Part shown: positions 1,183-64,000 of the stretch, piece after piece | Position numbering within the stretch: the first letter of the stretch is position 1 | Layout: every line of letters starts with the position of its first letter | Source of the DNA: a virus | DNA: 64,000 nucleotides | Virus record (IMG/VR): IMGVR_UViG_3300037470_000672 | Coordinates: 111,907 to 175,906 of that record | Strand: one strand, 5' to 3' | The notes under the pieces: model-generated | The model's database searches: none | What the model was told of the DNA's origin: nothing | What the model saw: only the letters and a program-made list of their open reading frames with translations | Made by a program: the position numbers and the translations under genes

Positions 1183-1205
1183 GTCTCGGGTTTAGAGGCT
1201 CCGAG
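1183..1205 (-). repeat. Degenerate solitary copy of CRISPR-like repeat (family A)
   Basis: GTCTCGGG-TTTAGAGGC-TCCGAG retains stem and terminal GAGAC (minus); abuts RBS of ORF 537..1169. Confidence 0.45.
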
Positions 1206-1277
1206 GGCCTTGGTTCTTGTACTACCGACAGCCTTCGCGGCTCAAGGTGTACGAGGGTGAACAGATAGCAGAAACCG

Positions 1278-4205
1278 TCAACTCAGAGTCTTCTGACTAA
1301 ATTTGAAGCGGATAAATTCCGCCGGCCGGTTGGGCGCGAGCCCCACATCGATGACTACCTGGCTGGACTCCGCATTGTTGTTCGTCTCGTCGACGATGAC
1401 GAAGAAGCTCTCGGTCGGCGTGTTGCCAGCAAAGAGCCCATCGTTGTGTAGAGGCGTGAGGAAACCACCTAGCTGGGCTTTGATCTTGGCCCATAGAGCC
1501 GGTCCGTTGTTCTCGAACGCGATCCAGTGGGTCGCATTGAATACCGACTTTTCGACGAACATGAACGTGCGTCGCGCTTGGATAAAGCGCCATTCCGCTT
1601 CGCTGGTGGACGCGAAGGTACGGGCTCCCCATACCACCAAGCCGGTCTGTGGCGTGTTGATGAGGGGGTTGATGTTCGCCGGGTAGACCAGATCGCGCTC
1701 GCCCTGATCGGGGTTGAACTCCAGCCCGAGCAGGAAATTCAACTTGCCGTCGACCGTACCCGCGGGCGCCTTACCCACGTTACGGTTGTTGTCGGTCCTG
1801 GCGTAAATGCCGGCGACGTGCCCGAGAGCGGGAACGGTGATGGGTTGACCGGTTGGGGAGAGCGGATCGGCTACGCGCACGTGCGGCCAGTAGATCGCGC
1901 CCCACTTCGTGTTGCGCCCCAGGTCGTTGCGAAGCCAATCCACCGCCTCTTGCGCATCCGAACCAACAGGTGGTTGAAGGATAAGGAAGCGATCACCGCC
2001 CGAAGGCTGGAACGCGCGCCCCTCGGCGTAGTCGATGAGGTCGCCGGTGATGGTCACATCGCCCACGAAGTCGGGAACGATGACTTGCATCAGCTCTTCG
2101 ACACGGTTGAGCGCGAACACCCCCTCCCGACCGGCTTCCAAAGATGGGTTGGTGAACTGGTTGCGCCCGTAGGTGGAGGGGGTGAAGGTTCCGTCAGACC
2201 CTGCGTCCCAGGACTGTACAACAGCAGCAACCGTGTCGTAGGTGACCTTGGTCGTGTCTCCGAAGGTCTCCAGGTGCTGGGTCTCGGTCGGAGCCGTCCA
2301 CCATGTGGTCTGCACCAAGATACCGCCTACGATGGGCTCCAGGAGCGTTACATCGAGAGCACCGGTGGTGTAGTTGATGGTGTTGTTACCGGTCGGATCG
2401 ACGTCTCCGGTGAGATTCCCGTTGCCGTCATCGGTGACGGTCAGCGTTGTTCCTGCGCCGGTGGTCGTGCCTTCGTAGGTGAGCATGAAGGTCCGCGGCC
2501 GAACAGGGAGACCACCGGATGCGAGAGAGGTGACAATGGTGGAGCCACCTGCGGTCTCATCACCGCCCGCGACGACTTGGCCGCGTCCGACGGCCTGGAG
2601 CTGACCGGGGGCCTCGTTGCCGCCCGGATCGGTGACCGAGATGAGGTCGCTCAACTCGTTGATGACGTCGGCCCAGAAACTGGTCGAGGTCGGATCGTTG
2701 AAGACCAACTCCTCGAAGGTCTCCTGGACGTCGAACACGGTGGGCGAGGAGCTGTTCCGGAGGGCCACGTTGACGTCGAACCGGCTGAACTGGCCGGTGG
2801 CGACGGTGAGGAAGTCGGCGTTGCCGTTGATCTGGATCTGAAGGTCATCGCCCCACACACCCGCTGAGATCGGGTCGAGGTCCCAGGCATCGATCTGGTA
2901 GTCGACCAGGATACCCGCTTCGTCATGCGGTGCCGTCTCGAAGGTGATGTCGTACGACCCGTCGCCATAGTCGATGGTCGAGTCGACACCGCCCACCATG
3001 CCGGTGACGCTGAAACCACCGTCAGCTACTGTCTCCAGGATGGCTACGTTTCCAACCGCCCCTTCCACAGTGTTCGTCAGGGACACCAAACCAACACCGC
3101 CGTTGGCTGCTGTGATGTTGAGGATCCCTGCGGTGTTCGCAGCGTTCACAGCTAAGATGATGCGGTCTCGCACATCATCCGCAGTAACGTCCGCGGAGAC
3201 GTCCACCGTTCTGTTTCCAGGAATGACCCCGTCCGGAACGGTGTCGAACTCAAACACCACCGCCGGGTTGACGCCGTCATCGAGGGTGAAGGTCTCACCA
3301 TCGATCAAAGCAGCAAACGCAACCGTAGTGATGGAACCCGTAGCTGTGCTGAGCCCTGCGCCTAACAACTTCCCCGTGGCCCCGTCATCTACAGCGGTCA
3401 GGGTTTCTGACGTAGGGGTGTAGCCCAGGCGCAAGTCTCCAGCCGCTCCCACTCCGGGCGACTCTGAACCGGCGAACTTCACGCTGAGGAAGCCAGAGCG
3501 ATGGTCGAAGCGGATCACAGACCCCTCGACCGTCGTGACCGTCACGATCGAGCCGGTGCCAGCAGGGATGGCGATGGTTCGGTCACCGTTGCCGTCGGGG
3601 TCGAAGATGAGCGACGCCGTGCCTCTCACCACCGAATCCAGTGCCTCGTCGAAGGCGGGTAGGCTGCCGGGAGCAATGCGCGCTTCGTAGTCGTCGGTTC
3701 CGCTGACGAGTGCCACGTCGGCGCCGTCGGCGCGGTTGCGCAGGTCTTCGGTCGCGACCAACGTGCCGGCTGTGCGCCAGCGAAGATTGAACGTGCCAGG
3801 GATGACCGGTGAATCCCCGTCGTTCGCCTTGACGACGGTGGTGGCGGAGGTCTTGGCGAAGTTGAGGGTAGCGCCGTCACCTGTCTCGATCTGTTGCTTG
3901 TTCGTCTGGCTCTGAACCTTGGCTTCGCTCAAAACCGCGTCGGACGGAACGACGCGATTGATGAACGCCCGCCGTCCGCCGTTGGCGAAGAAGGCGGCCA
4001 TCGAGATCGGCAGCAGACCGTTGGAGCTGATGCCTCCGAAACGCGAGAAGAACTGCGGGAAAGAGGTGACCAGCGTCGCTTCGTTGGTCGGCCCCTTCTC
4101 GGTAAAGCCGACACCACCGACGTTGCTGGTGGAGACAGCCTGAATCGTTTGGACCTGGGATGGGACTTCCTCGATGAAAATCCCGGCGGACAACAGCTCT
4201 GCCAC
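1278..4205 (-). CDS. Contractile tail sheath protein (T4 gp18-like) with inserted domains
   Basis: N-term LSAGIFIEEVPS..IQAVSTS; C-term INPLINTPQTGLVVWGART, WRFIQARRTFMFVEKS, FFVIVDETNN, PNRPAEFIRFKFSQK. Confidence 0.95.
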   Translation of the reverse strand: MAELLSAGIFIEEVPSQVQTIQAVSTSNVGGVGFTEKGPTNEATLVTSFPQFFSRFGGISSNGLLPISMAAFFANGGRRAFINRVVPSDAVLSEAKVQSQTNKQQIETGDGATLNFAKTSATTVVKANDGDSPVIPGTFNLRWRTAGTLVATEDLRNRADGADVALVSGTDDYEARIAPGSLPAFDEALDSVVRGTASLIFDPDGNGDRTIAIPAGTGSIVTVTTVEGSVIRFDHRSGFLSVKFAGSESPGVGAAGDLRLGYTPTSETLTAVDDGATGKLLGAGLSTATGSITTVAFAALIDGETFTLDDGVNPAVVFEFDTVPDGVIPGNRTVDVSADVTADDVRDRIILAVNAANTAGILNITAANGGVGLVSLTNTVEGAVGNVAILETVADGGFSVTGMVGGVDSTIDYGDGSYDITFETAPHDEAGILVDYQIDAWDLDPISAGVWGDDLQIQINGNADFLTVATGQFSRFDVNVALRNSSSPTVFDVQETFEELVFNDPTSTSFWADVINELSDLISVTDPGGNEAPGQLQAVGRGQVVAGGDETAGGSTIVTSLASGGLPVRPRTFMLTYEGTTTGAGTTLTVTDDGNGNLTGDVDPTGNNTINYTTGALDVTLLEPIVGGILVQTTWWTAPTETQHLETFGDTTKVTYDTVAAVVQSWDAGSDGTFTPSTYGRNQFTNPSLEAGREGVFALNRVEELMQVIVPDFVGDVTITGDLIDYAEGRAFQPSGGDRFLILQPPVGSDAQEAVDWLRNDLGRNTKWGAIYWPHVRVADPLSPTGQPITVPALGHVAGIYARTDNNRNVGKAPAGTVDGKLNFLLGLEFNPDQGERDLVYPANINPLINTPQTGLVVWGARTFASTSEAEWRFIQARRTFMFVEKSVFNATHWIAFENNGPALWAKIKAQLGGFLTPLHNDGLFAGNTPTESFFVIVDETNNNAESSQVVIDVGLAPNRPAEFIRFKFSQKTLS

Positions 4206-4233
4206 GGTTCACTCCACAGATCGATGAAAGGGT

Positions 4234-4674
4234 TCAGGAGCGACTACGGCGCCGCGATGAGGAGGAACTGGATGAATCGGACTCGCCGACCACTTCGGCA
4301 GAGGGCGTCTCTTCCTTGGGAGGGTCGGCTGGCTTGGGCGCTGTCGACAGCGCGACTGCGGCTGTTGCGCTCACGCTCACCTCCGGCTTGGAAGCGACCG
4401 GCTTGGGCACCGGCTTCTTCGCTTCCTTGACCTCTGGAGCACCTTCTTTGCCCTTCGCCCCAGCATCCGGCTTGGTAGCGACCTCGGGCTTGGCAACCTC
4501 CGAGACCTGCTTGAGGATGAGAAGCCCCTTCTTTCGCTTGCGGATGATATCGGCTGAGCCTACCTGACGCGCGTCCAGGACGAGCGTACCTTTTCCCGGG
4601 ACAGACGTAGATGTCCCATCCCGTAAAGAGACTGGACAGGGCACGCGCTTGGGGTTGTAGAGCCGGAAGGCCAT
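4234..4674 (-). CDS. Hypothetical protein, low-complexity K/P/S-rich C-terminus
   Basis: ORF from ATG 4674 (MAFRLYNPK), tightly packed in operon. Confidence 0.55.
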   Translation of the reverse strand: MAFRLYNPKRVPCPVSLRDGTSTSVPGKGTLVLDARQVGSADIIRKRKKGLLILKQVSEVAKPEVATKPDAGAKGKEGAPEVKEAKKPVPKPVASKPEVSVSATAAVALSTAPKPADPPKEETPSAEVVGESDSSSSSSSRRRSRS

Positions 4675-7832: not shown

Positions 7833-8579
7833 TTAACCTGTCAGGAAACCAAGCGGGAAGCCGCTGTCAAAAATCTCCTCTTCCAACCGATCTCGCTCCT
7901 CTTGGGCTTGCTCGTACAGCCGGTCTGCGTTGAGCGTGAGCGTACCTTGCGCGGAGGGGTATGCATCGTACTTGCCGCGCACCAGGGACAACGTTCCCTT
8001 GGCTTCGGCCAGTGCTTTGCGTCTGATCAGATCGTGGTCTCGGAACTTCAGGTGCTCCAGGGTGACGCAGTTGGGTTTGTAGAAGATGACCGCCTTTAAC
8101 GGGTTGGAACCCAACGCATCAGAGCTGATCCTATAGACGAGAAAGTAGCTGCGCTCGCCTCGTACCACCTCCCATTCAGGCTCTACCGAGATGATGCGCT
8201 TGGCCATCTCAATGTACTGAAGAGACTGCACGAACGAACTGTAGAGCCCTCCTCCGCGTGGGTTGGCGAAGACGTCGTACGGGATCTTATCCACGAACGC
8301 GAACGGACTGAAAATTGTCGCGAAGTCCAATTCCCGCTCGGCGAACACCACCTCGAAGACAGTGTCAACGTCATCGGGTAGCTCGACGCGCGTTTCGTTC
8401 GGGATCAAGTCTTTCTCTAAGACCCTTTCGATACCCTTCTTGGCGATGAACCACTCGATGGCGTCATCGATGGCGTCGTCGAGCTGCTCCTGTGACAACT
8501 CGACACAGATCAGTGGCCCTCCGAGCTTGCGAAGAAGCCACTGTTCCAGCTCTGCTCGGGTCATCAGCCGCTGGGCCAC
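7833..8579 (-). CDS. Neck protein (T4 gp13-like)
   Basis: RAELEQWLLRKLGGPLICVELSQEQLDDAIDDAIEWF is the gp13-type N-terminus. Confidence 0.85.
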   Translation of the reverse strand: MAQRLMTRAELEQWLLRKLGGPLICVELSQEQLDDAIDDAIEWFIAKKGIERVLEKDLIPNETRVELPDDVDTVFEVVFAERELDFATIFSPFAFVDKIPYDVFANPRGGGLYSSFVQSLQYIEMAKRIISVEPEWEVVRGERSYFLVYRISSDALGSNPLKAVIFYKPNCVTLEHLKFRDHDLIRRKALAEAKGTLSLVRGKYDAYPSAQGTLTLNADRLYEQAQEERDRLEEEIFDSGFPLGFLTG

Positions 8580-8589
8580 AAGCTCTCCT

Positions 8590-8613
8590 GTCTCGGAATT
8601 TCAAAGATCCGAA
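8590..8613 (-). repeat. Solitary CRISPR-like repeat (family A)
   Basis: 22/24 identity to array repeat over the hairpin part; followed directly on minus strand by AGGAGAG and the GTG start at 8579. Confidence 0.8.
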
Positions 8614-8652
8614 CGCTCTTCTGTGCATCCTTTCATCGCTGGGACGACGGGA

Positions 8653-9192
8653 TCAACTCTCCTCGACGTCGAACATCACCTTCAGCAGGTACGCCCGCAG
8701 CTCACCGACGAGTCGGACTTCGGCAGGGATCTCGATCTTGGCGGCGTCCGCCACCGCCTTCAGGTCTTTGCCCGTCATCCCCATCAGGCTGTCCGCCGTG
8801 AGCGCAGATTCCTCAGCCTGCTGTTCTTCTTGCTGCTCTTCCTGCTTCTCGACTTGCTGCTCTTTCGCCCCCTGAGCCTCTGCGTCACCCGCTGCCTTCT
8901 CTTCCTCGCGCGTCTGCGTGACCGGGTCTTCTTGGGGCGGCACAGGGGTCGCGGAGGGGGTAGATGACGCAGCCAGGTCGGGCTCGGTCTTCTTCGCAGG
9001 AGGTGACAGCGCAGGGATCACACGCACGATGGACGGAGCGGGCGGTGTGAACGGCACGAGGAGCTTTCCACCGGCCGGAGTCGCGAACTTCGCCCACTGC
9101 TCGCCAATGAGCACGGCGCCGTCTCGGACGCGACCGTAGCCGGGGACAAACGCCTGCTGGACGTCAGGATTCTTGGTGTACTGATGTTCCAT
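8653..9192 (-). CDS. Hypothetical protein, Q/E-rich linker
   Basis: 179 aa ORF in head operon. Confidence 0.55.
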   Translation of the reverse strand: MEHQYTKNPDVQQAFVPGYGRVRDGAVLIGEQWAKFATPAGGKLLVPFTPPAPSIVRVIPALSPPAKKTEPDLAASSTPSATPVPPQEDPVTQTREEEKAAGDAEAQGAKEQQVEKQEEQQEEQQAEESALTADSLMGMTGKDLKAVADAAKIEIPAEVRLVGELRAYLLKVMFDVEES

Positions 9193-9457
9193 TTGACGAT
9201 GTCTCCTGTTTCTCGTGGGGAACAGCGGCCAGGTCTTCCAAGCCCTGGGCGAGGGCCTTCAGTTCTGCGAGTTGGCCCTCGATGAAGAGTACCTTCTGCT
9301 GGATGCGAAGCGCCACTTGTCGGACGAGTTGGCGGTCTTCATCGGGGAGAGGAGCGGGCGGCGTCTTGCTACGCATCTTCGCGGCCTCGCCCAGGGAGGG
9401 CGCGTTCAGGGCGCCGATGGCGTTCAGCTCGCGCTCGATCTCTTCGGGGGTGGGCAT
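9164..9457 (-). CDS. Hypothetical protein
   Basis: 97 aa ORF with AAGGAG RBS. Confidence 0.55.
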   Translation of the reverse strand: MPTPEEIERELNAIGALNAPSLGEAAKMRSKTPPAPLPDEDRQLVRQVALRIQQKVLFIEGQLAELKALAQGLEDLAAVPHEKQETSSNGTSVHQES

Positions 9458-9537
9458 GAGGAGGCTCCTTGGTCCGACATCCTGGGGCTGGGAAACAGAG
9501 TAGCGCGGGGAGAACGAAGAACCAACCGCCTACTACT

Positions 9538-10566
9538 TCAAACCACATTGGCGAGGACAGAACCCTTTCGGCGCTTGAGGCGCAAGAATTTACGCTCTAG
9601 CCGCAATCCGGGAGCGGTGCCCGTATAGAGCCTACGAGCAACAAGGTCACGAGCGTCACCATTGAACCACACGGTGCGGGCACTGATATAACGTTCTCTG
9701 TCGTCGGTCTCCCACTCGACTTCCTGAATATGCCCTGGTTTCTCGCCGATGAAGTCAAGCAGCCAGTCTAAGAAGAAAGGAGACCCAGATGTAAACGCCA
9801 ATGAGTTACCACGTTTGTTAGCGTGACCGTCCCCATCAAAGCAACCCCGGAGAAAGTGCCATAACAGAGTATCGTCTCGAATCTTTGGCGGCTTCAGTGT
9901 TAGAGATTTTGCCGGGGTTATGCTGTAGTACCTTTCCAGGGCCTCTACCCAATCGACACTACACACATCCAACCAGCTATACACACGACCTGTGTTGTTG
10001 GGTTTGTCCCTTATGGGCTGGTCTAGGGTAGCGAACAGCTTGAGACTTTCGAGAATGCAGCGGTCCTTTGGGTGTACTCCAAAGGCTACAGATCTACGAT
10101 TTTGCGGGACACACCCATCGGCTGCCACGAAGCCGGCGAAGTACGCAGAAACTGGGGTAGGGGTGCGAAAGAAGTCCCGATCGCACTCGGTATACTTTGC
10201 GTACACCCGATCGGGTTTCGCTTCTCGTCCGCTGCGTCGGACGGCTTCTTGGATCCGGCCGAACGAGACCCCAAAGATCGCCCCCACCTCCGCCATGGTC
10301 ATTTTCTCGTTTGCGAAGTACATCTCGACCGCGGCGTCTGTGTCAAAAGTTGGCGGACTCGCTTCGCGATGAGAACGCGTTCGGACGCCTCGCTCCCGTA
10401 ATATCTGACTCACACGCCCTTGGCTTACCCCAAACTCGGCCGCAAGTTGCGCCTGGGTCAGGTTTTTTCCTTCAGCAAGGGCCTGCGTATAGCGGTCAAC
10501 CACGGCCTGGGCCGAGTGGATACGACCTCGTGGTTTGAGGTCTTTACGTCCTTTTGGCCTTCCCAT
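9538..10566 (-). CDS. Free-standing LAGLIDADG homing endonuclease with N-terminal HTH repeats
   Basis: Two motifs AYFAGFVAADGCV and HFLRGCFDGDGH; N-terminal QAQLAAEFGVSQGRVSQIL and MAEVGAIFGVS HTHs. Confidence 0.85.
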   Translation of the reverse strand: MGRPKGRKDLKPRGRIHSAQAVVDRYTQALAEGKNLTQAQLAAEFGVSQGRVSQILRERGVRTRSHREASPPTFDTDAAVEMYFANEKMTMAEVGAIFGVSFGRIQEAVRRSGREAKPDRVYAKYTECDRDFFRTPTPVSAYFAGFVAADGCVPQNRRSVAFGVHPKDRCILESLKLFATLDQPIRDKPNNTGRVYSWLDVCSVDWVEALERYYSITPAKSLTLKPPKIRDDTLLWHFLRGCFDGDGHANKRGNSLAFTSGSPFFLDWLLDFIGEKPGHIQEVEWETDDRERYISARTVWFNGDARDLVARRLYTGTAPGLRLERKFLRLKRRKGSVLANVV

Positions 10567-10600
10567 AGTCGGGCATAGTAGTACATCAGAAGAAGAACGT

Positions 10601-10632
10601 AAAGAAAAGGGCGACCTTAGGCCGCCCTTTTC
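10601..10632 (-). terminator. Intrinsic terminator after the major capsid gene
   Basis: Minus strand GGGCGGCC-TAA-GGTCGCCC followed by TTTTCTTT; A-tract on the other side suggests bidirectional use. Confidence 0.8.
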
Positions 10633-10652
10633 TCAAGCTATCTCTAGCGCGG

Positions 10653-12176
10653 CTAGAGATTTTGCACCCTGATCTGACCGTAGTAGTCAGGGCGGAGGAG
10701 CTTCTTCGCGTACCGGGTCCGCAGACCCTTCCTGAAGCTGAAGTCACTCGGATCCAGGAATGTTGGGGTGACCTGGAGCGGGATGTAGGGCGCCCACACG
10801 AAGCCGGCTTCCAGGAAGTGCATGCCCTTGAGCCCCACCAGCATCTGGTCGGTGCTGAAGAACGGGTCCTCGTAGACGCGCCACTTGTTCATCATGGTGC
10901 CGGTCCGGTAGATGCCGAACTGACCGTGGGTACCCATGGGGCGCGGCAGATCGACCGGAGCGTCGATGGCCATGCCTGCTGAGTACAGGGGCTTGAAGTC
11001 GCCGTGCGTGGTGAGTTGGGCGAACAGGGCCGAGACCTCGGGCGAGGTCACGATGAAGTTCGCCGGCTGCCGCAGGGTCTTCTTGTGGATGGTGTTGGCC
11101 ACGGTCGAGATGACCGTGATCATGGATCGCAGGTGGTCGTGCTCAGTGATGCCAGCGGGTACGGCGCGGTCGAAGACGCCGGTGGTCCCGGTGCTGTTCT
11201 GGAACAGCTCCTGGATGATCTCGCGGTCAATCTCCAAGGAGATCTCTTGCGCCACCGCCGAGACCAACTCGGTCTCCGCATCGATGCCGTGGAAGGCCCG
11301 GAGGTCTTCCGCAGCCTCACTGCTCCACAACGCCTTGAGGCGGCGCGGGACCGCTTCGACGGGCGCCTTGCGGACGTCCAGGTTCACCTGCGGGATCTTG
11401 GTGTTCAGCTCGCCGTCGTAGAAGTAGAACACCTTGATCGAGTTGCCCGCTACCGGCGCAACCGTGAACAGGAACCCGGTGAGCGAGCCGTTGGCGTAGT
11501 TGAGCGAACCGGCGGTCACGTCGCCCGTGAACCCACCCGCGCCGTTGTCCACTGCTTCCTGCACAGTCGCGCCCGCCGAATCCAGCTCGCGGACGGTGAC
11601 CGAGAAGCCGCGCTCTGCGTTGAGCGGACGGACCGGCGTGAAGCCGAGGTTGACGTCCAGACCGGTGCCCACACCACCGAAGGCTGCGCCGTCCCCCACC
11701 GCGGCGATTTCACCGTCGATGAACTCGGACGAGTAGTCGCGGTTGAAGTCGCGTGGGAAGACGTTACCTGCGGTCGTCGACCCCTTGGTCGTGCCGTAGA
11801 TGTAGTCCAGGAAGAAGACGGCGCCGATCGGCGCAGTCATTGGTTGGACAGACACCAGCTCGTGCGCGATGAGGTTGGGAAACACCCTCCGCAAGATCGG
11901 GAAGATGTACTTGGTGAACGGGCCGACGTTGCCACCGCGCGTCTCCTCGTCGATCAGGCGCATGGTCTGTGCATCGACGCCGCGGAGGTGCTGGGACTGG
12001 TTCTCCATGAGCATCGCGGTGAGGCCGAGCACGTACCGCTGCTGCTCGCTGCGATCCGGGATGCCCTCCAGCAGCGCTCCCCACTTGTTGATGCACTGAT
12101 TCACGTAGCCCCGTGCGAGGACCGTACCCTGACGATCCTCCCCCGGGACGCCTTCGACCATCTGTCGCGCTTCCAT
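10653..12176 (-). CDS. Major capsid protein (T4 gp23-like)
   Basis: FPILRRVFPNLIAHELVSVQPMTAP, RRLKALWSSEAAEDLRAFHGIDAETEL, EAGFVWAPYIPL, KGLRTRY. Confidence 0.95.
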   Translation of the reverse strand: MEARQMVEGVPGEDRQGTVLARGYVNQCINKWGALLEGIPDRSEQQRYVLGLTAMLMENQSQHLRGVDAQTMRLIDEETRGGNVGPFTKYIFPILRRVFPNLIAHELVSVQPMTAPIGAVFFLDYIYGTTKGSTTAGNVFPRDFNRDYSSEFIDGEIAAVGDGAAFGGVGTGLDVNLGFTPVRPLNAERGFSVTVRELDSAGATVQEAVDNGAGGFTGDVTAGSLNYANGSLTGFLFTVAPVAGNSIKVFYFYDGELNTKIPQVNLDVRKAPVEAVPRRLKALWSSEAAEDLRAFHGIDAETELVSAVAQEISLEIDREIIQELFQNSTGTTGVFDRAVPAGITEHDHLRSMITVISTVANTIHKKTLRQPANFIVTSPEVSALFAQLTTHGDFKPLYSAGMAIDAPVDLPRPMGTHGQFGIYRTGTMMNKWRVYEDPFFSTDQMLVGLKGMHFLEAGFVWAPYIPLQVTPTFLDPSDFSFRKGLRTRYAKKLLRPDYYGQIRVQNL

Positions 12177-12231
12177 TGTTTCTACTCCTCAGAGGGGTTT
12201 TTGTGGGAGGGGATCTCCCGGGGGTGGCCTG

Positions 12232-14022
12232 CTACGAGGCCGACAGTCGCTTGATTTCATCGAGAGAAAGGCCGGTGCCGTTGTAACTCGCCCCGGATCG
12301 AGCGTCGCTGCTTGCGTGAGCTTCCATCACCGGTTCGTTCGGGTTGGAAATGTCGTAGTCCAATCCGCCCGTACGGGCGGATTGGGGCAGTTGGGGCGCC
12401 GGCTCGACATGGCTGACGGAGTTGGAGCCTGCCAAAGCGCGCACACGGGCACGGATGGCATCGACCTGGTCCGATTCGGACATCGGGCGGCGGAACTGGT
12501 CCAACACCTGATCCACTTCCGCTCGGTTGGTCGGCGGGTTCTCCTCGAAGTGGCTGACCATCTCCGCACGGCGGGGGTGGTGACGAAGTCGCTCGGCGAT
12601 GTAGGCGTCGATCGCTTGGGCCTTGTTGAGAGTTACCGACTTCTCCAACGCCTCTTTGAGCTGGGTCATCTGCGTTTCGAGGGCCTGAACTCGCCGATCG
12701 GACTCAGACTTGACCTTGTTCATCTCCTTCTGCCGCGCGTCCTCTTGTGCCTTCTTCTCGGCCGCGCGGCGATCCAGCTCTTCTTGGACAGCGGAGACCT
12801 TGGTGGCGATCTCTTCAACAGATCCGTAGCTCGCCACGTCACCGACGATGCTGCGGATCAGATCGGCGTCGGCGCTCCCTTGAAGCTGTTGCTCCAGATA
12901 GAAGCGGTAGCCTGCCTTCTTGGCCATCGCTGCGAGCTTGTTGACCTGGTCTTCGAGCTGGACCTTCTCCTTGGAAAAGGAGCTGCGCTCGGTCGCGAGC
13001 TGGCCTTCCAGCTTGTCGATGCGGTCTTCGAGCTTGGCGACGACCGATTCCTCATCCTCGGAGAGGACGTAGGGTCGGATGACGGTCTTGATCTGTTCGA
13101 CCGCCTTCATCGCGCCAGCCAACTTCGGATCGGAGAGCATGTCACCACGAACCTGCTCGGCAATCTGCTCTTTGGCGTCGACGATCTGCTGGGTCACCTT
13201 CTCGGTGACCTGTTTGACCGCCTCGTCCTTGCCCTTTTCGCGCCCGGCCTCTTCGGCTTGGAGGACGCGCTTCTCGGCATCCTCGGTGAGCTTGGCGAGT
13301 AGGGCATCTTTTTCGGCGAGCTGCTCTTGCATCTCTCGGGTCGCCTGGGCCGAGATGGCTTCAAACAGCTCGGGATGCTGTTCCTTGAGCTGCTCCTCGG
13401 TGAGGTCTTGGATCTCCATACTCAGGTTCCCCTTGTTCTCTTGGAAGGATTCTGGCCACGCATCGCGGTCTGCTGGATCGGCGACGGCGTCGAAGGTGAC
13501 CAACCGGAAGCCGGGTTGGACTACAGATTCACCTTGCGCGTTGGTCCGTGTTGCGCCGAAGCCTCTGGAAGAAACACCGACCTGACAACCTGCTTCGACG
13601 ATGGCTTTGAGGTTCTGTCCGCGCGCGGTGTTGAGAATCTCTGCTTCACCGTACATCACACCATCAGGTTGAAGGTCCAACTTTGTGATAACGTGAGAAA
13701 TACGGTTGAGGCTTGTACGACCATCCAACGGATGGTCGGCTTCCCCGAATACACGACGCTGTTCAATCAGAGGTTGGAGGCGCTTCAGCTCCTCCGCTAC
13801 GAGATTGCGCGGGTATAGGCGCTTGTTTTCGGTGGCCCGATCAGCGCGACCGAACTCACCCTTAAGGATCCACTTCTTCGGCGCACCCTCTACGACTTCA
13901 CGCTCTTCAACGACCAGAGGTGTCGACGGGTAGTAGACCCCTTCGATGAGACCCACCTGTCCCTGCGTGTCCTCCAAGAGGGCGCGACCGATTTTTTTGG
14001 CTGGGGTAGGGGGTGTACTCAT
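12232..14022 (-). CDS. Prohead protease (T4 gp21/S77-like) fused to long coiled-coil scaffold
   Basis: NKRLYPR, FGEADHP, GVSSRGFG, LVTFDAVADP in N-terminal ~190 aa; heptad-rich remainder. Confidence 0.9.
   Translation of the reverse strand: MSTPPTPAKKIGRALLEDTQGQVGLIEGVYYPSTPLVVEEREVVEGAPKKWILKGEFGRADRATENKRLYPRNLVAEELKRLQPLIEQRRVFGEADHPLDGRTSLNRISHVITKLDLQPDGVMYGEAEILNTARGQNLKAIVEAGCQVGVSSRGFGATRTNAQGESVVQPGFRLVTFDAVADPADRDAWPESFQENKGNLSMEIQDLTEEQLKEQHPELFEAISAQATREMQEQLAEKDALLAKLTEDAEKRVLQAEEAGREKGKDEAVKQVTEKVTQQIVDAKEQIAEQVRGDMLSDPKLAGAMKAVEQIKTVIRPYVLSEDEESVVAKLEDRIDKLEGQLATERSSFSKEKVQLEDQVNKLAAMAKKAGYRFYLEQQLQGSADADLIRSIVGDVASYGSVEEIATKVSAVQEELDRRAAEKKAQEDARQKEMNKVKSESDRRVQALETQMTQLKEALEKSVTLNKAQAIDAYIAERLRHHPRRAEMVSHFEENPPTNRAEVDQVLDQFRRPMSESDQVDAIRARVRALAGSNSVSHVEPAPQLPQSARTGGLDYDISNPNEPVMEAHASSDARSGASYNGTGLSLDEIKRLSAS
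12360..12385. repeat. Palindrome family B, 26-bp perfect palindrome inside protease/scaffold ORF
   Basis: CCAATCCGCCCGTACGGGCGGATTGG read directly. Confidence 0.9.
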
Positions 14023-14200
14023 CGTTCTCGTTTCCAGAACTTGGCTTTGAAGGGACCTCGATCGAGGATGCTGGGCTTCTTCTTGACTTCGCGCTTCTTC
14101 GGTTTGAGCCCCGTCATCAGGTCGCTGACTCCAAGAATCTCCCGCCAGGTACTACGGTAGGCGGTCCGTCGCTTTCGATGACCACCATAACCCTCGTGGA

Positions 14201-15745
14201 TCACTGCGGTCCTGGCTTGCCCTTCTCTTTCGCAGCCCACTGGGCCATCTTCTTGGCGCCGTACTTCTTCTGTCCGATGGCCGCCGCCACCGCTTTGGGA
14301 TCTTGGATGTCGGGGCGCTTCTCCAACTCCTTCGCCAGGGCGGCGAAGCGACCCCCCTTTCCCGTCTCGGAATTCCAAGGATCCGAGCGTCCTTTCAACC
14401 CAAAAGGGGCCTTCTCAGCTTCCATGACGGCCTCCTCGGGGAGAAGGTGCTCGTAGCAGGCTGCGAGAAAGGTGATGTCGTTGTCGTCGATGGATTCCTT
14501 CTTGTAGCCGTTCTTCTTTGCGGCCTTCATCCCCTTGACGACCTTCATCGCCTCATCGCCGGGCATGTTGGCGAGCTTCACACCCATCTCAACCATACCT
14601 TGCACAGCGTCCAGGGTGTCATCCTCGGACATGGTCGCCATGCCGACGAGCTTGTTCTTAAGACCCCTCACGTATGCCGGGATGTCGTCATCGGAGAGCG
14701 ACTCCAGCTTGACGGCGACGCCCTTCATGAGGGCCAAAGCGTCATCGTCCGACAGTCCTTCGAGCGCGCTTGCGGCAAGCGCGATGACAGCCAGGTCTGA
14801 ACCCTCAACCTGGTCCTCCTCCTCCGAGTCGGCGAAGAGGCTCACGTCTTCGATGAGGTCGTCGTAAATCTCCAACATCTCCAGAAACGTGCTGAAGAAG
14901 AGCTTGAAGTCCTCTTCAAATTCCGCCGCGTCGGTGTCGCCCAACTCGTACTCATGCAACGTCTCTGCATAGTCAGCAGCGGTCTCGGCCAGGGCGTTGA
15001 CGGCCTGGCAGAACTCGATGACGCCTTCGCGGATCTCGTCATCCCCCTCCTCATCGAAGAGGTCTGCCTCGACCATCTCGGCGAGGGTCTCCTCGACCGG
15101 GACGAGTTGATGGGCAAGATCGTTGGCAGCCAGCGAGAGCGACGCGAACGCCTGCGTGTTCTCCAACACCTTGGGCGCGAGCGAGACCTTACCGGCTGCC
15201 TCCATCAGATCGTTGAGATCGGCGATCAACGCCGTCAGCGCATCCGCCTCCACCCCTTCCTGTGCAGGCGACGGACGGCGCAACGTGATGCGCTTGACAC
15301 CTGACTTGCGCAGGTGGCCGAGGCGGGACTGCGCTCGCTTGTAGAGGCGCTTGAAGCGTCGGCCCGCGGCCGATCGGCGCCACTTCTTGACCATGCGCTT
15401 CTTGACGGCCTTGACACGGCGGTACTTGCGACGGGCGAGACGTCGTTCACGACGAATCTCAGCGCCGCGCTCCTGTCGCATAATACGTGCGGCTTGCTCA
15501 GACAAGTCCGCCAACTGGTCGTCGTCCAGATCTGCTTGGTCGAGAAGCCGGGAGATCTCCGCCGCGACGCGCGCCACGTCCAGATCGACCACTTCTGCTG
15601 GGTGAGGGTCTTCCTGACGAGTGGAGTCCTCCACGATAGGAGCAGACGGCGGGGGGTTGACGATTCGCTGCACCCTTTCATCATCGCGTACCAACCCGAT
15701 GAGGGCGAAGTCTTCGGCAAGAGAAGAGAGCTTGGGCTGGGTCAC
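14201..15745 (-). CDS. Probable prohead core protein (gp67/gp68-like position)
   Basis: GTG start 15745 with GGAGG RBS overlapping previous stop; very basic R/K block then acidic region; lies between portal and protease. Confidence 0.6.
   Translation of the reverse strand: MTQPKLSSLAEDFALIGLVRDDERVQRIVNPPPSAPIVEDSTRQEDPHPAEVVDLDVARVAAEISRLLDQADLDDDQLADLSEQAARIMRQERGAEIRRERRLARRKYRRVKAVKKRMVKKWRRSAAGRRFKRLYKRAQSRLGHLRKSGVKRITLRRPSPAQEGVEADALTALIADLNDLMEAAGKVSLAPKVLENTQAFASLSLAANDLAHQLVPVEETLAEMVEADLFDEEGDDEIREGVIEFCQAVNALAETAADYAETLHEYELGDTDAAEFEEDFKLFFSTFLEMLEIYDDLIEDVSLFADSEEEDQVEGSDLAVIALAASALEGLSDDDALALMKGVAVKLESLSDDDIPAYVRGLKNKLVGMATMSEDDTLDAVQGMVEMGVKLANMPGDEAMKVVKGMKAAKKNGYKKESIDDNDITFLAACYEHLLPEEAVMEAEKAPFGLKGRSDPWNSETGKGGRFAALAKELEKRPDIQDPKAVAAAIGQKKYGAKKMAQWAAKEKGKPGPQ
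14364..14399 (-). repeat. Full-length CRISPR-like repeat (family A) inserted in frame in a CDS
   Basis: GTCTCGGAATTCCAAGGATCCGAGCGTCCTTTCAAC, 33/36 identical to array repeat; encodes LKGRSDPWNSET. Confidence 0.9.
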
Positions 15746-16656
15746 GGCGAATCCTCCGGACTCACGTCGGCTTGGGCAGCAGCTTCTACAAAACACCGCG
15801 CCACAGAGATTGGAAAGAGAACTTCCGACAGAACGTTGCGAAAATCGGCAAGTGTGTTGACGCTCGCGTCCTGTTGGATTGTGAGCACCTTCTCCGCAGC
15901 GGTACTGACCGTCTCTAGGTGCTCGGACAACTCCACTTGGACCCTGTCCGCGAGGCTATCAGCGCCATCTCGGAATTCCAAAGAACCGAGCGGCCTCGCA
16001 TCCCCAAAGTCGAAGCTGTTGAGCTTGTTGCGCTCATCCCTAAGCATGCGCACCAGGTCTTCAAGATCGGTAACGACCTGCATTCGGTCATCATCGCCGA
16101 CGATGTTCTCGTCTAGCTTTTGGAGCTGACGCTCCTCGATCTCTTTGAGCCCTTTATGCCAACAGGCCCGCTTCAGCGTGTTTTCGTGCTCAACCCACAG
16201 GGAGCGGAAGTCCGACCGCTGGAGGATCTCGGCCTTCGCCTTGAGAACCACTGCGGCCACATCCTGTTTTGCTGGTCGAACAGACTCTACCAGGGAAGCG
16301 AGCCGAAGAGCAGCATCTGGGTCACCGCTGAGCAAGCCCTTCACAACCTGCTCAGCTTCCTCCTGTACAAACGCCTCAAGGTTCTCCTCGGAGTAAACCT
16401 TCAGCGGTACCTGCTCGTGCCCTGTGATCCGCAAATCACCATTGCTGTCCTCATCAAAGCGCACCCTGACAGCCTTCGACGAAGCCGAGAGAACGATGGC
16501 GTGACCAGGGAAGGTTGCCACCACCCGTGTTTCTACCCGCTCACCAAACAACCGGGGCGAGGATTCCTGCACAGCCTCCACAAGCCGCGCAATGAGGTGC
16601 TCAAAACTCCCGTTGCTGAGCTTCCTGATGTCTTCGGTGGCGAGTAAGCTGGTCAT
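15742..16656 (-). CDS. Hypothetical head-morphogenesis protein
   Basis: 304 aa ORF between portal and core gene. Confidence 0.65.
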   Translation of the reverse strand: MTSLLATEDIRKLSNGSFEHLIARLVEAVQESSPRLFGERVETRVVATFPGHAIVLSASSKAVRVRFDEDSNGDLRITGHEQVPLKVYSEENLEAFVQEEAEQVVKGLLSGDPDAALRLASLVESVRPAKQDVAAVVLKAKAEILQRSDFRSLWVEHENTLKRACWHKGLKEIEERQLQKLDENIVGDDDRMQVVTDLEDLVRMLRDERNKLNSFDFGDARPLGSLEFRDGADSLADRVQVELSEHLETVSTAAEKVLTIQQDASVNTLADFRNVLSEVLFPISVARCFVEAAAQADVSPEDSP

Positions 16657-16670
16657 AGGTGTTTGGGCGA

Positions 16671-16706
16671 GTCTCGGAATTTCAAGGGTCCGAGCATCCT
16701 TTTCTC
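16671..16706 (-). repeat. Solitary CRISPR-like repeat (family A)
   Basis: 29/36 identical to array repeat; fills the portal-stop to next-start gap. Confidence 0.85.
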
Positions 16707-16711
16707 CTGCG

Positions 16712-20839: not shown

Positions 20840-20868
20840 GTTCTCCGCCCACGACGCATAGGCTCAAT

Positions 20869-20884
20869 CCGCCCGTACGGGCGG
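20869..20884. repeat. Palindrome family B core
   Basis: CCGCCCGTACGGGCGG between terminase stop and portal start. Confidence 0.9.
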
Positions 20885-20892
20885 GTCAGAGC

Positions 20893-23007: not shown

Positions 23008-23013
23008 GGGGGT

Positions 23014-23751
23014 TTACCCGTCAACATCTTCGGACAGCGGATCAACCTCTTCTGGCGACGGAGGACCCTTCGCGTCGCTGTACTCGGCGTCGATGATACC
23101 GTCGATCTTCTTCTCGCCGGCTAAAGACACCAGTTTGTCGGCCAAACCCATGAGCCGGAGGCGACTCTCCGGGTTCTCCAACACCTTGCGTACGCCTTCG
23201 TCCTCTACACGGGCGGTGAGATTCTCGATTGGGTCGGACTCTTCTTTGCCGCCATAGACCGCCTTGGCGATGCCAAGATCGAGCTTGATGCGCGCGCTCT
23301 TGTCGAGGATGTCCAACGCCACACGCACTTCCTGGGCGGTGGTGGGCAGGAGCTTGTTGATGTTCCGCTCCAACTCGGCGTCGATGTCTACCCGCGCGCG
23401 CTGGAGCCGGTAGAGGTCTTCCATCTCGTTTAGCTCGTGCAGCCCTTTGCGCGCTTTGGCGATGCTCCTCTGGAGATGCTGCGGCAGCACCGGGACTTTG
23501 TCCTCCAACGGAAGTTCCCCTCGGTAGCCGCAAAGAATAACGCCCAAAGACTCTCTAGTAACGTCCGTGTACTCCTGACACTCCTCCTGGATGAAATCGG
23601 CTACGTGTTGCGGCGGCAACCCGTCCAGCAGCATCTGGTGCGCCTCCTCAAAACAATCCAGCGCCCTGAATCGTTGAAAGCGCGGCGCCCGGCTTTTGGG
23701 CGGGGTGCCCCTCACCGGAAACGGGATGACATCCGAACCAGGCTCGTCCAT
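23014..23751 (-). CDS. Probable terminase small subunit
   Basis: Helical 245 aa ORF immediately upstream of terL; synteny only. Confidence 0.5.
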   Translation of the reverse strand: MDEPGSDVIPFPVRGTPPKSRAPRFQRFRALDCFEEAHQMLLDGLPPQHVADFIQEECQEYTDVTRESLGVILCGYRGELPLEDKVPVLPQHLQRSIAKARKGLHELNEMEDLYRLQRARVDIDAELERNINKLLPTTAQEVRVALDILDKSARIKLDLGIAKAVYGGKEESDPIENLTARVEDEGVRKVLENPESRLRLMGLADKLVSLAGEKKIDGIIDAEYSDAKGPPSPEEVDPLSEDVDG

Positions 23752-23777
23752 ACGCTGACTCTAGCATGTCGCAATGG

Positions 23778-24392
23778 TCAAGCGGGGCGCTCTGGTCCCA
23801 AAGCGGGGGACTCCGGTTCCTCTGGGAGCCAGCTCTGTCGCTTCTCATCCCAATTTCGGAACATGAGCGACCGCATCGGAACAGCGCGATGGTTGTTGTA
23901 CTTGGCGGTGTTCTTCTGGTCGTAGGGCTTGTCGACGAGCCCTTCTGTTCGCCAAAAGATGAGCTGCCCTATCGGCATGCCCGCGTAGACCCTGACCGGC
24001 TGAACGACGTCGATCTCCAACGTCCAGTGCCCTACGAAACCTGCGTCTCCCTTGCCGGCCGTAGCGTGGATACGGATGCCCAGTCGACCCAGAGAGGACT
24101 TACCTTCCAGAAAAGGCACGATCTGTCTGGAGCACTTGGTGTGCTCCTCGGTGACGGCCAGGTAGAGCCGCCCTGGCCGAAGGACGTACCCTTCCTCGGG
24201 GATAAGGCACTCGTCGATCTCGTGATCTTTCTTGGCGTCCAAGGGCACGTCGCGGTATCGATCCGAATAGGTAAGGAACCTATCGCCAAGATGCACGTCG
24301 TAGGAGTTAGAACCGAGGCAACCGAAGCGGAAGGGGGTGATAGTGATCTTCCCCTCTTCAAGAGCGCGACGGATGGAGCGATCGGAGAGCAT
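23778..24392 (-). CDS. dcd: dCTP deaminase
   Basis: SNSYDVHLG, GKSSLGRLGI, HATAGKGDAGFVGHWTLEI, PIGQLIF. Confidence 0.93.
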   Translation of the reverse strand: MLSDRSIRRALEEGKITITPFRFGCLGSNSYDVHLGDRFLTYSDRYRDVPLDAKKDHEIDECLIPEEGYVLRPGRLYLAVTEEHTKCSRQIVPFLEGKSSLGRLGIRIHATAGKGDAGFVGHWTLEIDVVQPVRVYAGMPIGQLIFWRTEGLVDKPYDQKNTAKYNNHRAVPMRSLMFRNWDEKRQSWLPEEPESPALGPERPA

Positions 24393-24865: not shown

Positions 24866-24882
24866 CCGGGGTGAGTCGTCTG

Positions 24883-25179: not shown

Positions 25180-25189
25180 GCCGGACTCC

Positions 25190-28106: not shown

Positions 28107-28137
28107 AACCAGTTTCTACCATCTAGTCCGCAGATTG

Positions 28138-29321: not shown

Positions 29322-29332
29322 GGTTACCTCCC

Positions 29333-29368
29333 ATCTCGGAATTTCAAAGATCCGAGAGCCGTTTCCAT
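29333..29368 (-). repeat. Solitary CRISPR-like repeat (family A)
   Basis: 28/36 identical, stem intact; followed on minus strand directly by GGGAGGT RBS and GTG 29321. Confidence 0.85.
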
Positions 29369-30441: not shown

Positions 30442-30452
30442 CCGTCCTCCCC

Positions 30453-30488
30453 TTCTCGGAATTTCAAGGATCCGAGCATCCGTTCAAC
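30453..30488 (-). repeat. Solitary CRISPR-like repeat (family A)
   Basis: 31/36 identical; its 5' GTTGAA contains the stop codon of the Cas4-like gene, its 3' end abuts GGGGAGG RBS. Confidence 0.9.
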
Positions 30489-33880: not shown

Positions 33881-33916
33881 GTCTCGGAGTTTCAAGGATC
33901 CGAGCATCCGTTCACA
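33881..33916 (-). repeat. Solitary CRISPR-like repeat (family A)
   Basis: 29/36 identical; intergenic, 26 nt upstream of recA start. Confidence 0.85.
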
Positions 33917-36731: not shown

Positions 36732-36753
36732 AATCCGCCCGTACGGGCGGATT
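36732..36753. repeat. Palindrome family B, 22-bp perfect
   Basis: AATCCGCCCGTACGGGCGGATT. Confidence 0.9.
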
Positions 36754-36792: not shown

Positions 36793-36823
36793 GTCTCGGA
36801 ATTCCGAGCATTCTTTAATCAAC
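36793..36823 (-). repeat. Loop-deleted copy of CRISPR-like repeat (family A)
   Basis: GTCTCGGAATTCCGAGCATTCTTTAATCAAC keeps both repeat ends and stem; starts right after the SSB stop codon. Confidence 0.7.
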
Positions 36824-44150: not shown

Positions 44151-44166
44151 CCGCCCGTACGGGCGG
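44151..44166. repeat. Palindrome family B core
   Basis: CCGCCCGTACGGGCGG between convergent genes. Confidence 0.9.
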
Positions 44167-51487: not shown

Positions 51488-51523
51488 GCCTCGGAATTTC
51501 AAGGATCCGAGTATCCCTGCAAC
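51488..51523 (-). repeat. Solitary CRISPR-like repeat (family A)
   Basis: 29/36 identical; 21 nt upstream of ATG 51466. Confidence 0.85.
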
Positions 51524-54548: not shown

Positions 54549-54584
54549 GTCTCGGAATTTCACAGATCCGAGCACCCTTTCACA
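54549..54584 (-). repeat. Solitary CRISPR-like repeat (family A)
   Basis: 30/36 identical; intergenic, 5 nt after stop at 54590. Confidence 0.85.
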
Positions 54585-62009: not shown

Positions 62010-62025
62010 CCGCCCGTACGGGCGG
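62010..62025. repeat. Palindrome family B core
   Basis: CCGCCCGTACGGGCGG, intergenic. Confidence 0.9.
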
Positions 62026-62728: not shown

Positions 62729-63226
62729 TCAGGCGCGTACCCAGCGCGCACAGCAGCCCAGCGGGTCGACCGGGGCCGGCATACGGTTCTGATCAATCAC
62801 GACCTGACAGCGTCCCATCACCACACCCTCCTCCGCTGCTGGGAAGACCCGCGGAGCGGGGAGGTACTCTCGGCAGATGTCGCAACTCGTACCGCCCGGA
62901 ACCATATCTAAGCCAGAGAGATTGGGGTCGAGGGGGTCAATGCCGGGATGGTCCGTCCACCGGCGCATCGGCTTGCCGTAGACATGGTAGCCGCAGACGT
63001 GTTCGGCAGTGATCGGCAGGTTCTTTTCGTGTACCACGCGCCGGTCCTGCCCAGCGACCCACATGATGCAGTTGCGGCACGCCTTTCTCGATCCGTCTGG
63101 ATTCGGATGGACGTAGACGACGCCCCAAGGCTGTGAGCGGGCTTCGTGAGGGGGTGGTTCAACCAGCTCCTGGTCGTCTTCGATCAGGAGCTGCCCCTCT
63201 TCGACCAGGACCCGCAGCGACTTCAT
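62729..63226 (-). CDS. Cys-rich hypothetical protein
   Basis: CRNC, CG, CDIC, C, CCARW. Confidence 0.6.
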   Translation of the reverse strand: MKSLRVLVEEGQLLIEDDQELVEPPPHEARSQPWGVVYVHPNPDGSRKACRNCIMWVAGQDRRVVHEKNLPITAEHVCGYHVYGKPMRRWTDHPGIDPLDPNLSGLDMVPGGTSCDICREYLPAPRVFPAAEEGVVMGRCQVVIDQNRMPAPVDPLGCCARWVRA

Positions 63227-63258
63227 CGGGTCTGACTATACTGGGTTTTCGGGTCTGA

Positions 63259-63798
63259 CTACACAGCGTTTTCGGATGCGCCCCTACCGTTGAGCTGCGC
63301 CTCCAGCTCACGGATGCGTTGGTCTTTCACCTCCGCTGCCCGTTGGGTCTCCGCGTGGAGGTTATTCAGCCGGACTCTGAGGTCGTTGACGACATCGCTC
63401 TCGTCCTGCACCTCCCTGCGTCGGAGCACCGGCGACTGCCACTCCTTCCCGTCCGCGTTCAGGGCGCCGTTCACGCGGAGGGAACCGCACGCTGAGCACC
63501 AGGACGCCAACGGAAGCGAGTCTGAGTCCGACAGCCGATGCAGGCTTCCGGCGGGGTGAGGGCACTCTCGATGCGCCCCTGCCTCTTCGTTCAGCTTCTG
63601 TTCGGCTGCCATCAGTTTTACCTGAAGCGCCAGCTTTTCCATCTCTAGCTTGCGGCAGCGGGGCTCCCAGAAGCTCTGGATGCACTCCTGGTAGGCGGAG
63701 ACGGCTGCTGTGATCTGTACCTCAGCAGAGGCCGTTACCTTGGCCCGCTCCTGCTGGAGGATGTCACGGGCCTGTTCTCGGATTTGGGCGTCGACCAT
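63259..63798 (-). CDS. Coiled-coil protein with small zinc ribbon
   Basis: CPH..WCSACG; GAGG RBS. Confidence 0.6.
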   Translation of the reverse strand: MVDAQIREQARDILQQERAKVTASAEVQITAAVSAYQECIQSFWEPRCRKLEMEKLALQVKLMAAEQKLNEEAGAHRECPHPAGSLHRLSDSDSLPLASWCSACGSLRVNGALNADGKEWQSPVLRRREVQDESDVVNDLRVRLNNLHAETQRAAEVKDQRIRELEAQLNGRGASENAV

Positions 63799-63860
63799 CT
63801 GCTACCTCTTTACGACACCTACTACAGGACCGACCCCTACCACAGGACCGTGGTCTTCAT

Positions 63861-64000
63861 GTCTCGGAATTCCAAAGATCCGAGCATCTTTTCAACCGGC
63901 TTGAAGTTGGGGAACGCCTTCCGAAGGTTCTCTGCCAAGTCTCGGAATTCCAAAGATCCGAGCATCTTTTCAACGTGAGGTCATGCTGCCGGCCGATGCC
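63861..64000 (-). CRISPR. CRISPR-like array, continues beyond window edge
   Basis: Two identical 36-bp repeats (63861-63896, 63939-63974) separated by a unique 42-bp spacer; 26 nt of further unique sequence to the edge; minus-strand repeat GTTGAAAAGATGCTCGGATCTTTGGAATTCCGAGAC. Confidence 0.7.

Follow-up and report, generated by a model that had tools for sequence, protein, structure and literature searches.

Single copies of a predicted Cas12m crRNA scaffold dispersed through the genome of a large T4-like phage

Closest described systems

Known type V-M CRISPR systems (MmCas12m2, GoCas12m and MsCas12m; PMC10442227, PMC11013384) pair an effector, Cas12m, with a repeat array and silence foreign DNA. 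Here we describe the final 64 kb (the window) of a 175,906-bp IMG/VR virus record (IMGVR_UViG_3300037470_000672, labelled G000 in comparisons; genome coordinate = window + 111,906), a phage in which the 36-nt repeat of a type V-M array recurs as single dispersed copies, predicted to be solitary copies of the CRISPR RNA (crRNA) scaffold of the phage's own Cas12m. The phage resembles the known systems in its homologous effector, in a 36-nt pseudoknot-plus-stem repeat ending in GAC, and in an array lying directly downstream of the effector gene on the same strand; it differs in being a huge, lytic-type T4-like carrier with two arrays, and in the ~20 extra single repeats in its own transcripts genome-wide.

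Cas12m is reported to process its own precursor crRNA (pre-crRNA; PMC11013384, PMC10442227), cutting inside the repeat with no need of a trans-activating crRNA, orthologs with a D-E-D RuvC triad included (PMC11013384). It binds double-stranded DNA and leaves it uncut (PMC10442227), as do the D-E-D orthologs (PMC11013384), and it silences transcription as a DNA binder dependent on a protospacer-adjacent motif (PAM; PMC11013384). Type V-M is enriched on plasmids and present in prophages (PMC11656645), and in a 2026 preprint (10.64898/2026.09.14.751636) the Cas12m of a myxophage is presented as the first one in a phage, a claim that understates the frequency, since IMG/VR holds 45 viral contigs with Cas12m relatives (loci L025-L069), most of them with an array of 36-nt repeats just downstream.

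Two kinds of exapted repeat come close to the dispersed copies. RNA anti-CRISPRs (Racrs; PMC10651486) are likewise single CRISPR repeats in viral genomes that retain a Cas-binding structure, but they mimic host repeats, come with no cas genes, have promoters of their own that express them as small RNAs, and are often neighbours of acr genes. In this phage, by contrast, the cognate Cas12m is encoded along with two arrays, and the copies would sit inside mRNAs beside ribosome-binding sites. CreTA/CreR, scaRNA and crlRNA (bioRxiv 10.1101/2023.03.03.530964, 10.1101/2023.03.10.532045) are alike in that exapted repeats let a Cas effector regulate genes and not destroy DNA; these regulators are mini-arrays in cas loci, with a degenerate second repeat and a short spacer that pairs with a promoter in trans, whereas the present copies lack both a second repeat and a trans target and are spread over the genome. 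The original prediction had found neither Racrs nor CreTA a good match, reasonably so, given the cognate cas gene of the phage, the missing second degenerate repeat and the missing target in trans.

Processing sites in polycistronic phage mRNA are familiar from the RNase III sites of T7 and from T4 RegB, and in engineered settings Csy4 or Cas12a sites have been used for excision from mRNAs, Cas12a excising crRNAs. What we propose below shares with these a structured site at the cistron boundary, a single RNase and the uncoupling of neighbouring genes; we know of no natural case in which a CRISPR effector's own handle serves as a processing site of viral mRNAs. The omega-RNA of TnpB, from which Cas12m descends, is also a fixed scaffold (~100-150 nt) that takes adjacent genomic sequence as guide, whereas here transposon ends and a transposase are missing and the scaffold is a 36-nt CRISPR repeat. 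In the literature on Cas12m, type V-M distribution, phage Cas12m, Racrs and crRNA-like regulators we found no account of a phage Cas12m whose cognate repeat is dispersed through the genome as solitary copies. The known kinds are type V-M systems and viral solitary repeats, and what appears to be new here is the dispersal of copies cognate to the phage's own Cas12m.

The dispersed repeat, its arrays and the cognate effector

A profile was built from the copies and the whole record was scanned with it, matches at E<1e-7 being taken as clear. This recovered 30 minus-strand copies of the 36-nt repeat (8 in the main array as assembled, 3 in a mini-array and 19 solitary), together with one loop-deleted derivative and one inverted degenerate copy (genome 62486); nine of the clear solitary copies and the loop-deleted derivative, which is probably a decayed copy, lie in the window (Table 1). 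In shuffled controls, 0 of 100 yielded any match with 3 or fewer mismatches. Nine of the ten window recurrences reported by the original prediction were borne out by mismatch counts and by the profile, which added one more, at 15967, that had been overlooked. The remaining one of the ten, a degenerate element at window 1183..1205 on the minus strand (14 nt before an ATG), was rejected: it keeps only CTCGG and CCGAGAC around 11 nt, the extra matches of such a loose stem pattern are as frequent in shuffles, and it is indistinguishable from chance. The claim that every window copy has the same orientation on the transcribed (minus) strand held, and genome-wide 30 of 31 copies follow it, the exception being that at genome 62486; random orientation across the genome was thus not seen.

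The effector that these copies would serve is encoded outside the window. Its product (P0001) matches a solved Cas12m (PDB 23vw, E 2e-80, residues 18-544), carries the Pfam Cas12f1-like TNB domain (PF07282, 1.3e-10), and has D293, E443 and D534 as a D-E-D RuvC triad together with CxxC motifs, so that by sequence it is a Cas12m, the type V-M effector cognate to the dispersed copies. No adaptation genes were seen near it, no systematic search for them having been made. The repeat of the adjoining mini-array is the consensus of the solitary copies.

The main array, cut by the window end, continues at the other end of the record, where six exact repeats (genome 3-419) enclose spacers A1-A5, and the spacers at the two contig ends overlap. 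A 222-kb contig from the Joint Genome Institute (JGI) holds the array-adjacent gene twice, 175.5 kb apart, which makes it a concatemer of a ~175.5-kb genome that is circular or circularly permuted; the array of this contig has three repeats, with spacers A1 and A5 (L152:9751-9937, L153:2786-2972). This is a true CRISPR array whose spacer content varies within the population, and not a tandem of two copies like repetitive extragenic palindromic (REP) elements, which would have refuted the original prediction: it spans the contig ends and its spacers vary. Array content also differs between populations though no adaptation genes were seen (again with no systematic search). The array spacers had no self matches in the genome and no credible match in 50,697 phage records; no match was found for A1 and A2 (first 22 nt) in IMG/VR, for A5 (first 22 nt) in JGI metagenomes or for A4 (first 22 nt) in the species genomes.

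In RNA sense the repeat reads GUUGAAAGGAUG-CUCGGA-UCCUUGAAAU-UCCGAG-AC, with a 6-bp stem pairing positions -24..-19 with -8..-3 and, after it, A(-2) and C(-1). Overlapping this stem is a second one, AAGGAU/AUCCUU, which gives a pseudoknot layout. In the crRNA of Cas12m2 the pseudoknot joins -22..-17 with -8..-3, G(-23) pairs with A(-2), a further stem is coaxial, and positions -36..-30 are disordered (PMC10442227). Across 21 repeats adjoining Cas12m genes in viral and metagenomic contigs, the same two-stem layout was paired at 81.5% (65% in shuffles) and showed 33 double changes against 14 in shuffles, none of 500 shuffles scoring as high; moreover, the GAC end is near-invariant across V-M repeats. 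A general covariance model for V-M repeats was dropped because the MAFFT alignment shifted the G000 repeat by one column (about 2 nt relative to Cas12m2 numbering) and so put it out of register. Taken together, these features indicate that the repeat is a Cas12m crRNA handle with a pseudoknot-plus-stem scaffold.

Drift among the copies follows this layout. Stem 2 is 98% paired and almost invariant in the genome's own copies, and solitary copies depart from their consensus more often in the 5' 12 nt (23% of positions) than in the 3' 24 nt (5.8%; odds ratio 4.8, P 1e-10). The conserved 3' 24 nt are predicted to be the part that forms the protein-bound scaffold, and the variable 5' part would correspond to the crRNA region that is disordered or trimmed in the mature form. 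The flanks of the copies are unconserved, and therefore the unit is the repeat alone. Except in the pair at genome 78527/78460, a scan relaxed to E 100 found no second repeat-like match at 20-60 nt past the solitary copies; for the 40 nt downstream of each copy, seed-proximal matches in the rest of the genome were no more than expected by chance.

Table 1. Coordinates of the repeat copies, arrays, effector gene and other features (SD, Shine-Dalgarno sequence)
Feature	Position	Strand	Match or sequence	Context
Solitary copy, 12-nt insertion between 5' part and scaffold	window 8590..8635	-	22/24 of 3' part	ends 10 nt before GTG of gp13-like neck/head-tail adaptor gene, abutting SD AGGAG
Solitary copy	window 14364..14399	-	33/36, 3 mismatches	in frame in 3' part of 514-aa head-module gene; ~160 nt upstream of next (61-aa) gene, ~385 nt upstream of prohead protease start (L149 gene calls)
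Solitary copy	window 15967..16002	-	28/36, 8 mismatches, E 2e-8	in frame in 3' part of 304-aa gene; next gene start 170-220 nt downstream
Solitary copy	window 16671..16706	-	7 mismatches	portal gene stop 5 nt upstream, ATG of 304-aa gene 14 nt downstream
Solitary copy	window 29333..29368	-	8 mismatches	45 nt past stop codon; ends 11 nt before GTG of 310-aa gene, abutting SD GGGAGG
Solitary copy	window 30453..30488	-	5 mismatches	variable 5' end contains stop codon of upstream 324-aa gene; ends 11 nt before TTG of 155-aa gene
Solitary copy	window 33881..33916	-	7 mismatches	ends 26 nt before RecA/UvsX-like recombinase gene start
Loop-deleted derivative	window 36793..36816	-	E 0.01, GTTGATTAAAGAATGCTCGGAATTCCGAGAC	upstream of helicase gene; palindromic hairpin ~40 nt further downstream
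Solitary copy	window 51488..51523	-	7 mismatches	47 nt past stop, 21 nt before ATG with SD GGAGGA
Solitary copy	window 54549..54584	-	6 mismatches	between two 126-aa genes (L152 gene calls), 8 nt past upstream stop and 52 nt before next gene
Main type V-M array, 3' end	window 63861..63974	-	exact 36-nt repeats 63861-63896, 63939-63974	42-nt spacer
Mini-array, 3 repeats	genome 56137, 56063, 55989	-		begins 23 nt past cas12m stop
cas12m, protein P0001, 592 aa	genome 56196-57974, outside window	-		directly upstream of mini-array
T4-type portal gene, 1375 aa	window 16707-20839 (L149:3139-7266)			intein and HNH domains
tRNA clusters	L009:600-4586 and L011:205-466			solitary repeats at genome 874 and 40098 within clusters
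RF-1-like release factor gene	L009:2015-2671			near tRNA cluster
Palindrome, window copies	12365-12380, 20869-20884, 36735-36750, 44151-44166, 62010-62025		AATCCGCCCGTACGGGCGGATT	
Palindrome, further copies	genome 914, 16450, 23847, 39046, 42183, 62461, 78145, 92764		AATCCGCCCGTACGGGCGGATT	

Placement, recurrence and a possible role in phage transcripts

With crude calls of open reading frames (ORFs), 14 of the 19 solitary copies lay outside minus-strand ORFs against a background of 22.5% (P 3e-6), and with the L149 and L152 gene calls plus inspection of starts about 17 of 19 were intergenic. The distance from the end of the copy to the start codon is 10-14 nt in seven cases, with several of these copies directly abutting the SD, and 21-34 nt in five more; two copies lie within tRNA clusters. 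The initial count of nine junction copies in ten was slightly high, since those at 14364 and 15967 are inside genes while the remaining window copies are intergenic; these two stand in frame in consecutive head-module genes, each of which abuts the next gene with no intergenic gap. The genes downstream of copies include those of the gp13-like neck protein, head-module proteins, the recombinase and a helix-turn-helix regulator, and many of unknown function. Nearly all genes and all but one of the copies share a strand, so the copies would be transcribed within polycistronic mRNA or a tRNA-cluster transcript.

One could see in this placement an ordinary intergenic element (a terminator, an RNase III or RNase E site, or a promoter) unrelated to Cas12m, or else DNA sites at which Cas12m represses its own genome. 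The phage does carry another dispersed intergenic hairpin, in 13 copies, and self-binding by a DNA binder that does not cut would be harmless, other Cas12m phages having spacers that match themselves. We nevertheless consider both very improbable. No U-tract follows the solitary copies, no sigma-70-like promoter was found before the six copies of window 14200-34100 (a consensus that may not be the host's), and the solitary copies always match the CRISPR repeat of their own carrier, which ties them to the effector and speaks against an unrelated element; the GAC end, moreover, differs from the T- or C-rich PAMs measured in the family, so that arrays and copies should escape DNA targeting. Among specific candidates, a promoter was rejected because the -35-like TTGAAA words in the repeat have no usable -10 and the start codons are too close, and a REP-like element or intrinsic terminator because there is no U-tract, the element is the CRISPR repeat of the phage, and further Cas12m phages have repeats of their own scattered in their genomes.

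These other phages were compared as 11 whole genomes and 34 analysed 20-kb Cas12m loci. A 110-kb phage (G001), whose Cas12m is 33% identical and whose repeat is unrelated, has a 7-repeat array and 5-7 solitary copies of its own repeat. Another (G010) has seven solitary copies among genes on both strands, with the orientation of copy and gene concordant in five cases and discordant in none; two of its copies (2635 and 43100) precede an SD and an ATG by ~20 nt, and a further two lie immediately against an ATG. A third (G007) carries many copies, partly scattered and partly in irregular clusters, while the single solitary copy of G011 is a duplicated spacer-plus-repeat fragment. The layout is thus recurrent among Cas12m phages, not universal, and no general requirement of the system.

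We tentatively favour, at somewhat under an even chance, the reading that the copies are co-transcribed binding and processing sites through which Cas12m controls the phage's own mRNAs, binding, cleavage and regulation all being inferred. Cas12m would bind the pseudoknot handle within the transcript and cut just upstream of it, as in pre-crRNA, which would separate the upstream from the downstream cistron. It would then stay bound to the downstream RNA at the 5' end so created, where the next ~17-20 nt, often containing the SD and start codon, would take the place of the guide. The outcome would be a Cas12m-dependent post-transcriptional regulon, with processing and control of translation or stability for ~20 downstream genes. 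The original prediction had likewise suggested a processing or regulation network run by a Cas6/Cas12-type RNase; the cognate Cas12m encoded by the phage, the conserved scaffold, the co-orientation, the position at cistron boundaries and the recurrence elsewhere lend it partial support. Wider still, and more doubtful in our judgement, is the idea that a virus has made a CRISPR effector a regulator of its own expression, with handles at ~20 boundaries through which one protein would cut and cap mRNAs and tRNA precursors and govern translation of the genes downstream, and that this has evolved repeatedly in Cas12m phages, in each with a repeat sequence of its own.

Several observations weigh against a role of Cas12m on phage transcripts. 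Beyond crRNA maturation, its established activity is DNA binding only, so that a role on mRNA would be an extrapolation. Two copies are inside genes, and for several the next start is over 100 nt away; in the genome's own copies stem 1 shows one covarying pair (G-C, A-U, G-U), a weak signal whose score is reached by 41 of 500 shuffles. Three whole genomes (G003, G005 and G009) carry arrays alone, and solitary copies are missing too from about three quarters of the 34 Cas12m loci. Decayed copies exist (36793 and the inverted copy at genome 62486), and together with the duplicated fragment of G011 they mean that some copies may be debris.

Taken further, this would make most copies neutral debris: repeats, or spacer-plus-repeat fragments, spread by illegitimate recombination and surviving where they are harmless, that is, intergenic and in sense orientation. 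The irregular, fragmented or multiple arrays of G007, G008 and L023, the G011 fragment, the decayed copies and the varying array content of the population are what such a process would leave, yet we judge it improbable as a general account, because drift is non-uniform and spares exactly the scaffold (P 1e-10), the copies are tightly grouped against the ribosome-binding site, two are retained in frame inside genes, orientation follows transcription, and the layout recurs in distant Cas12m phages.

A further reading takes the sequence downstream of each copy as a guide. Each copy would yield a crRNA with the first ~17-20 nt downstream as its guide, which would silence the locus in co-infecting relatives that lack the insert and spare the phage itself, whose repeat end GAC sits in the PAM position of its own locus. 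This reading, unlikely in our estimate, would draw on the PAM-dependent DNA binding and transcriptional silencing of Cas12m (PMC11013384), and would provide a source of guides with no adaptation module, none being seen at Cas12m phage loci (no systematic search); the copies are at the 5' ends of core genes (neck, head module, recombinase, helicase), which would be effective sites for a roadblock, and the guide would pair with the template strand. Against this, the bases upstream of the copies are T-rich in only ~2 of 18 cases, whereas the PAMs of other, tested Cas12m proteins are T- or C-rich (an argument that assumes simple insertion, the bases just upstream of a copy being the PAM of the rival allele); the guides would fall mostly in 5' untranslated regions, the least conserved sequence between relatives; and the copies in tRNA clusters do not fit.

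Nor did we find a relative that lacks a copy, whether through the IMG/VR protease search, in the comparison with L150 and L151, or in the metagenome contigs. The prohead protease led to no close relative in IMG/VR for a comparison of junctions, and the nearest ones, L150 (47% protease identity) and L151 (43%), which are too distant and too short for this purpose, had no copy of the G000 type at the corresponding junctions. Insert-less and insert-bearing alleles were also sought in reads of four runs with a low share on window 14200-34100 (low coverage rather than divergence), and the only joints found were array spacers mapping between solitary copies.

Finally, the copies could act as decoys or buffers in the manner of Racrs, soaking up the Cas12m of a host, a plasmid, a rival phage or the phage itself and so limiting DNA silencing. 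Solitary repeat units do act as RNA anti-CRISPRs (PMC10651486), and V-M systems are enriched on plasmids and reside in prophages too (PMC11656645). The copies are, however, cognate to the phage's own effector and arrays, and twenty of them directed against one's own enzyme are hard to rationalise; a search for exact matches to the repeat core found none in IMG/VR, in JGI metagenome contigs or in 185,579 species genomes, and so no host system for the copies to mimic; and they would stand within mRNAs and not in small RNA genes, with no sigma-70-like promoter before the six that were scanned. A decoy role thus seems to us as improbable as debris, and processing by Cas12m is the reading that we tentatively favour.

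Further features of the phage and implications

By its gene content the virus appears to be a large T4-like phage, whose DNA is present in soil and sediment metagenomes from many studies; for window 8000-17000, the sequencing runs that contain it were all of DNA and none of RNA. Nearly all genes are on the minus strand, and third codon positions are highest in GC. Besides the portal gene (Table 1), the structural genes encode an S77 prohead protease, a gp23-type capsid protein, the gp13-like neck protein and a tail sheath; other genes encode the RecA/UvsX-like recombinase, a helicase, Dam, UDG and an RNA ligase. There are 14 tRNA genes (13 found by ARAGORN and one more by Rfam), 12 of them grouped beside the CRISPR array.

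The second dispersed family consists of 13 copies of a perfect palindrome, AATCCGCCCGTACGGGCGGATT, mostly at gene junctions, although at least one, at window 12365, is within the prohead protease ORF. A solitary Cas12m repeat directly follows two of the copies, and a third stands beside the inverted copy at genome 62486; none is followed by a U-tract, and the palindrome may serve as an operator or form a hairpin in RNA. At genome 62486-62597 (L012:2486-2597), an intrinsic terminator, a sense solitary repeat, 40 nt, the inverted degenerate repeat and a palindromic hairpin follow one another, and this region, with the sole inverted copy of the genome, could form a long RNA hairpin. Just downstream of the main array, two short intergenic tandem direct repeats with units of 23 bp and 18 bp (window 63226-63275 and 63813-63850) may be operator or iteron-like sites.

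Unusual arrays and spacers were also met elsewhere. On the 113-kb metagenome contig L023, which also has ParA and PIN genes, the repeats past the Cas12m gene (L023:4400-6520) are 72 to 590 nt apart and extra degenerate copies occur, so that the array looks fragmented or expanded. Two spacers of L027 match a site ~850 nt upstream of its own cas12m (L027:9094-9166); a spacer of G008 matches the phage's own site 108673-108706, flanked by TTTTCT and just before an SD and ATG; and a spacer of G011 has a 22-nt match within one of the phage's own genes (69674-69695). Such self-matching spacers hint that phage Cas12m may also be used on the phage's own DNA.

If processing by Cas12m at the dispersed copies proves true, the handle of 36 nt and the protein of ~590 aa would make a compact engineering part for operon processing or translational control. 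For biology, it would be a natural case of a virus using a class 2 CRISPR effector on its own transcripts, through a post-transcriptional regulon of crRNA handles, and would add to the roles known for CRISPR parts in mobile elements, which are defence, counter-defence, decoys and cas autoregulation. An explanation would follow, too, for the retention of a cleavage-incompetent Cas12m with no adaptation genes in many large phages.

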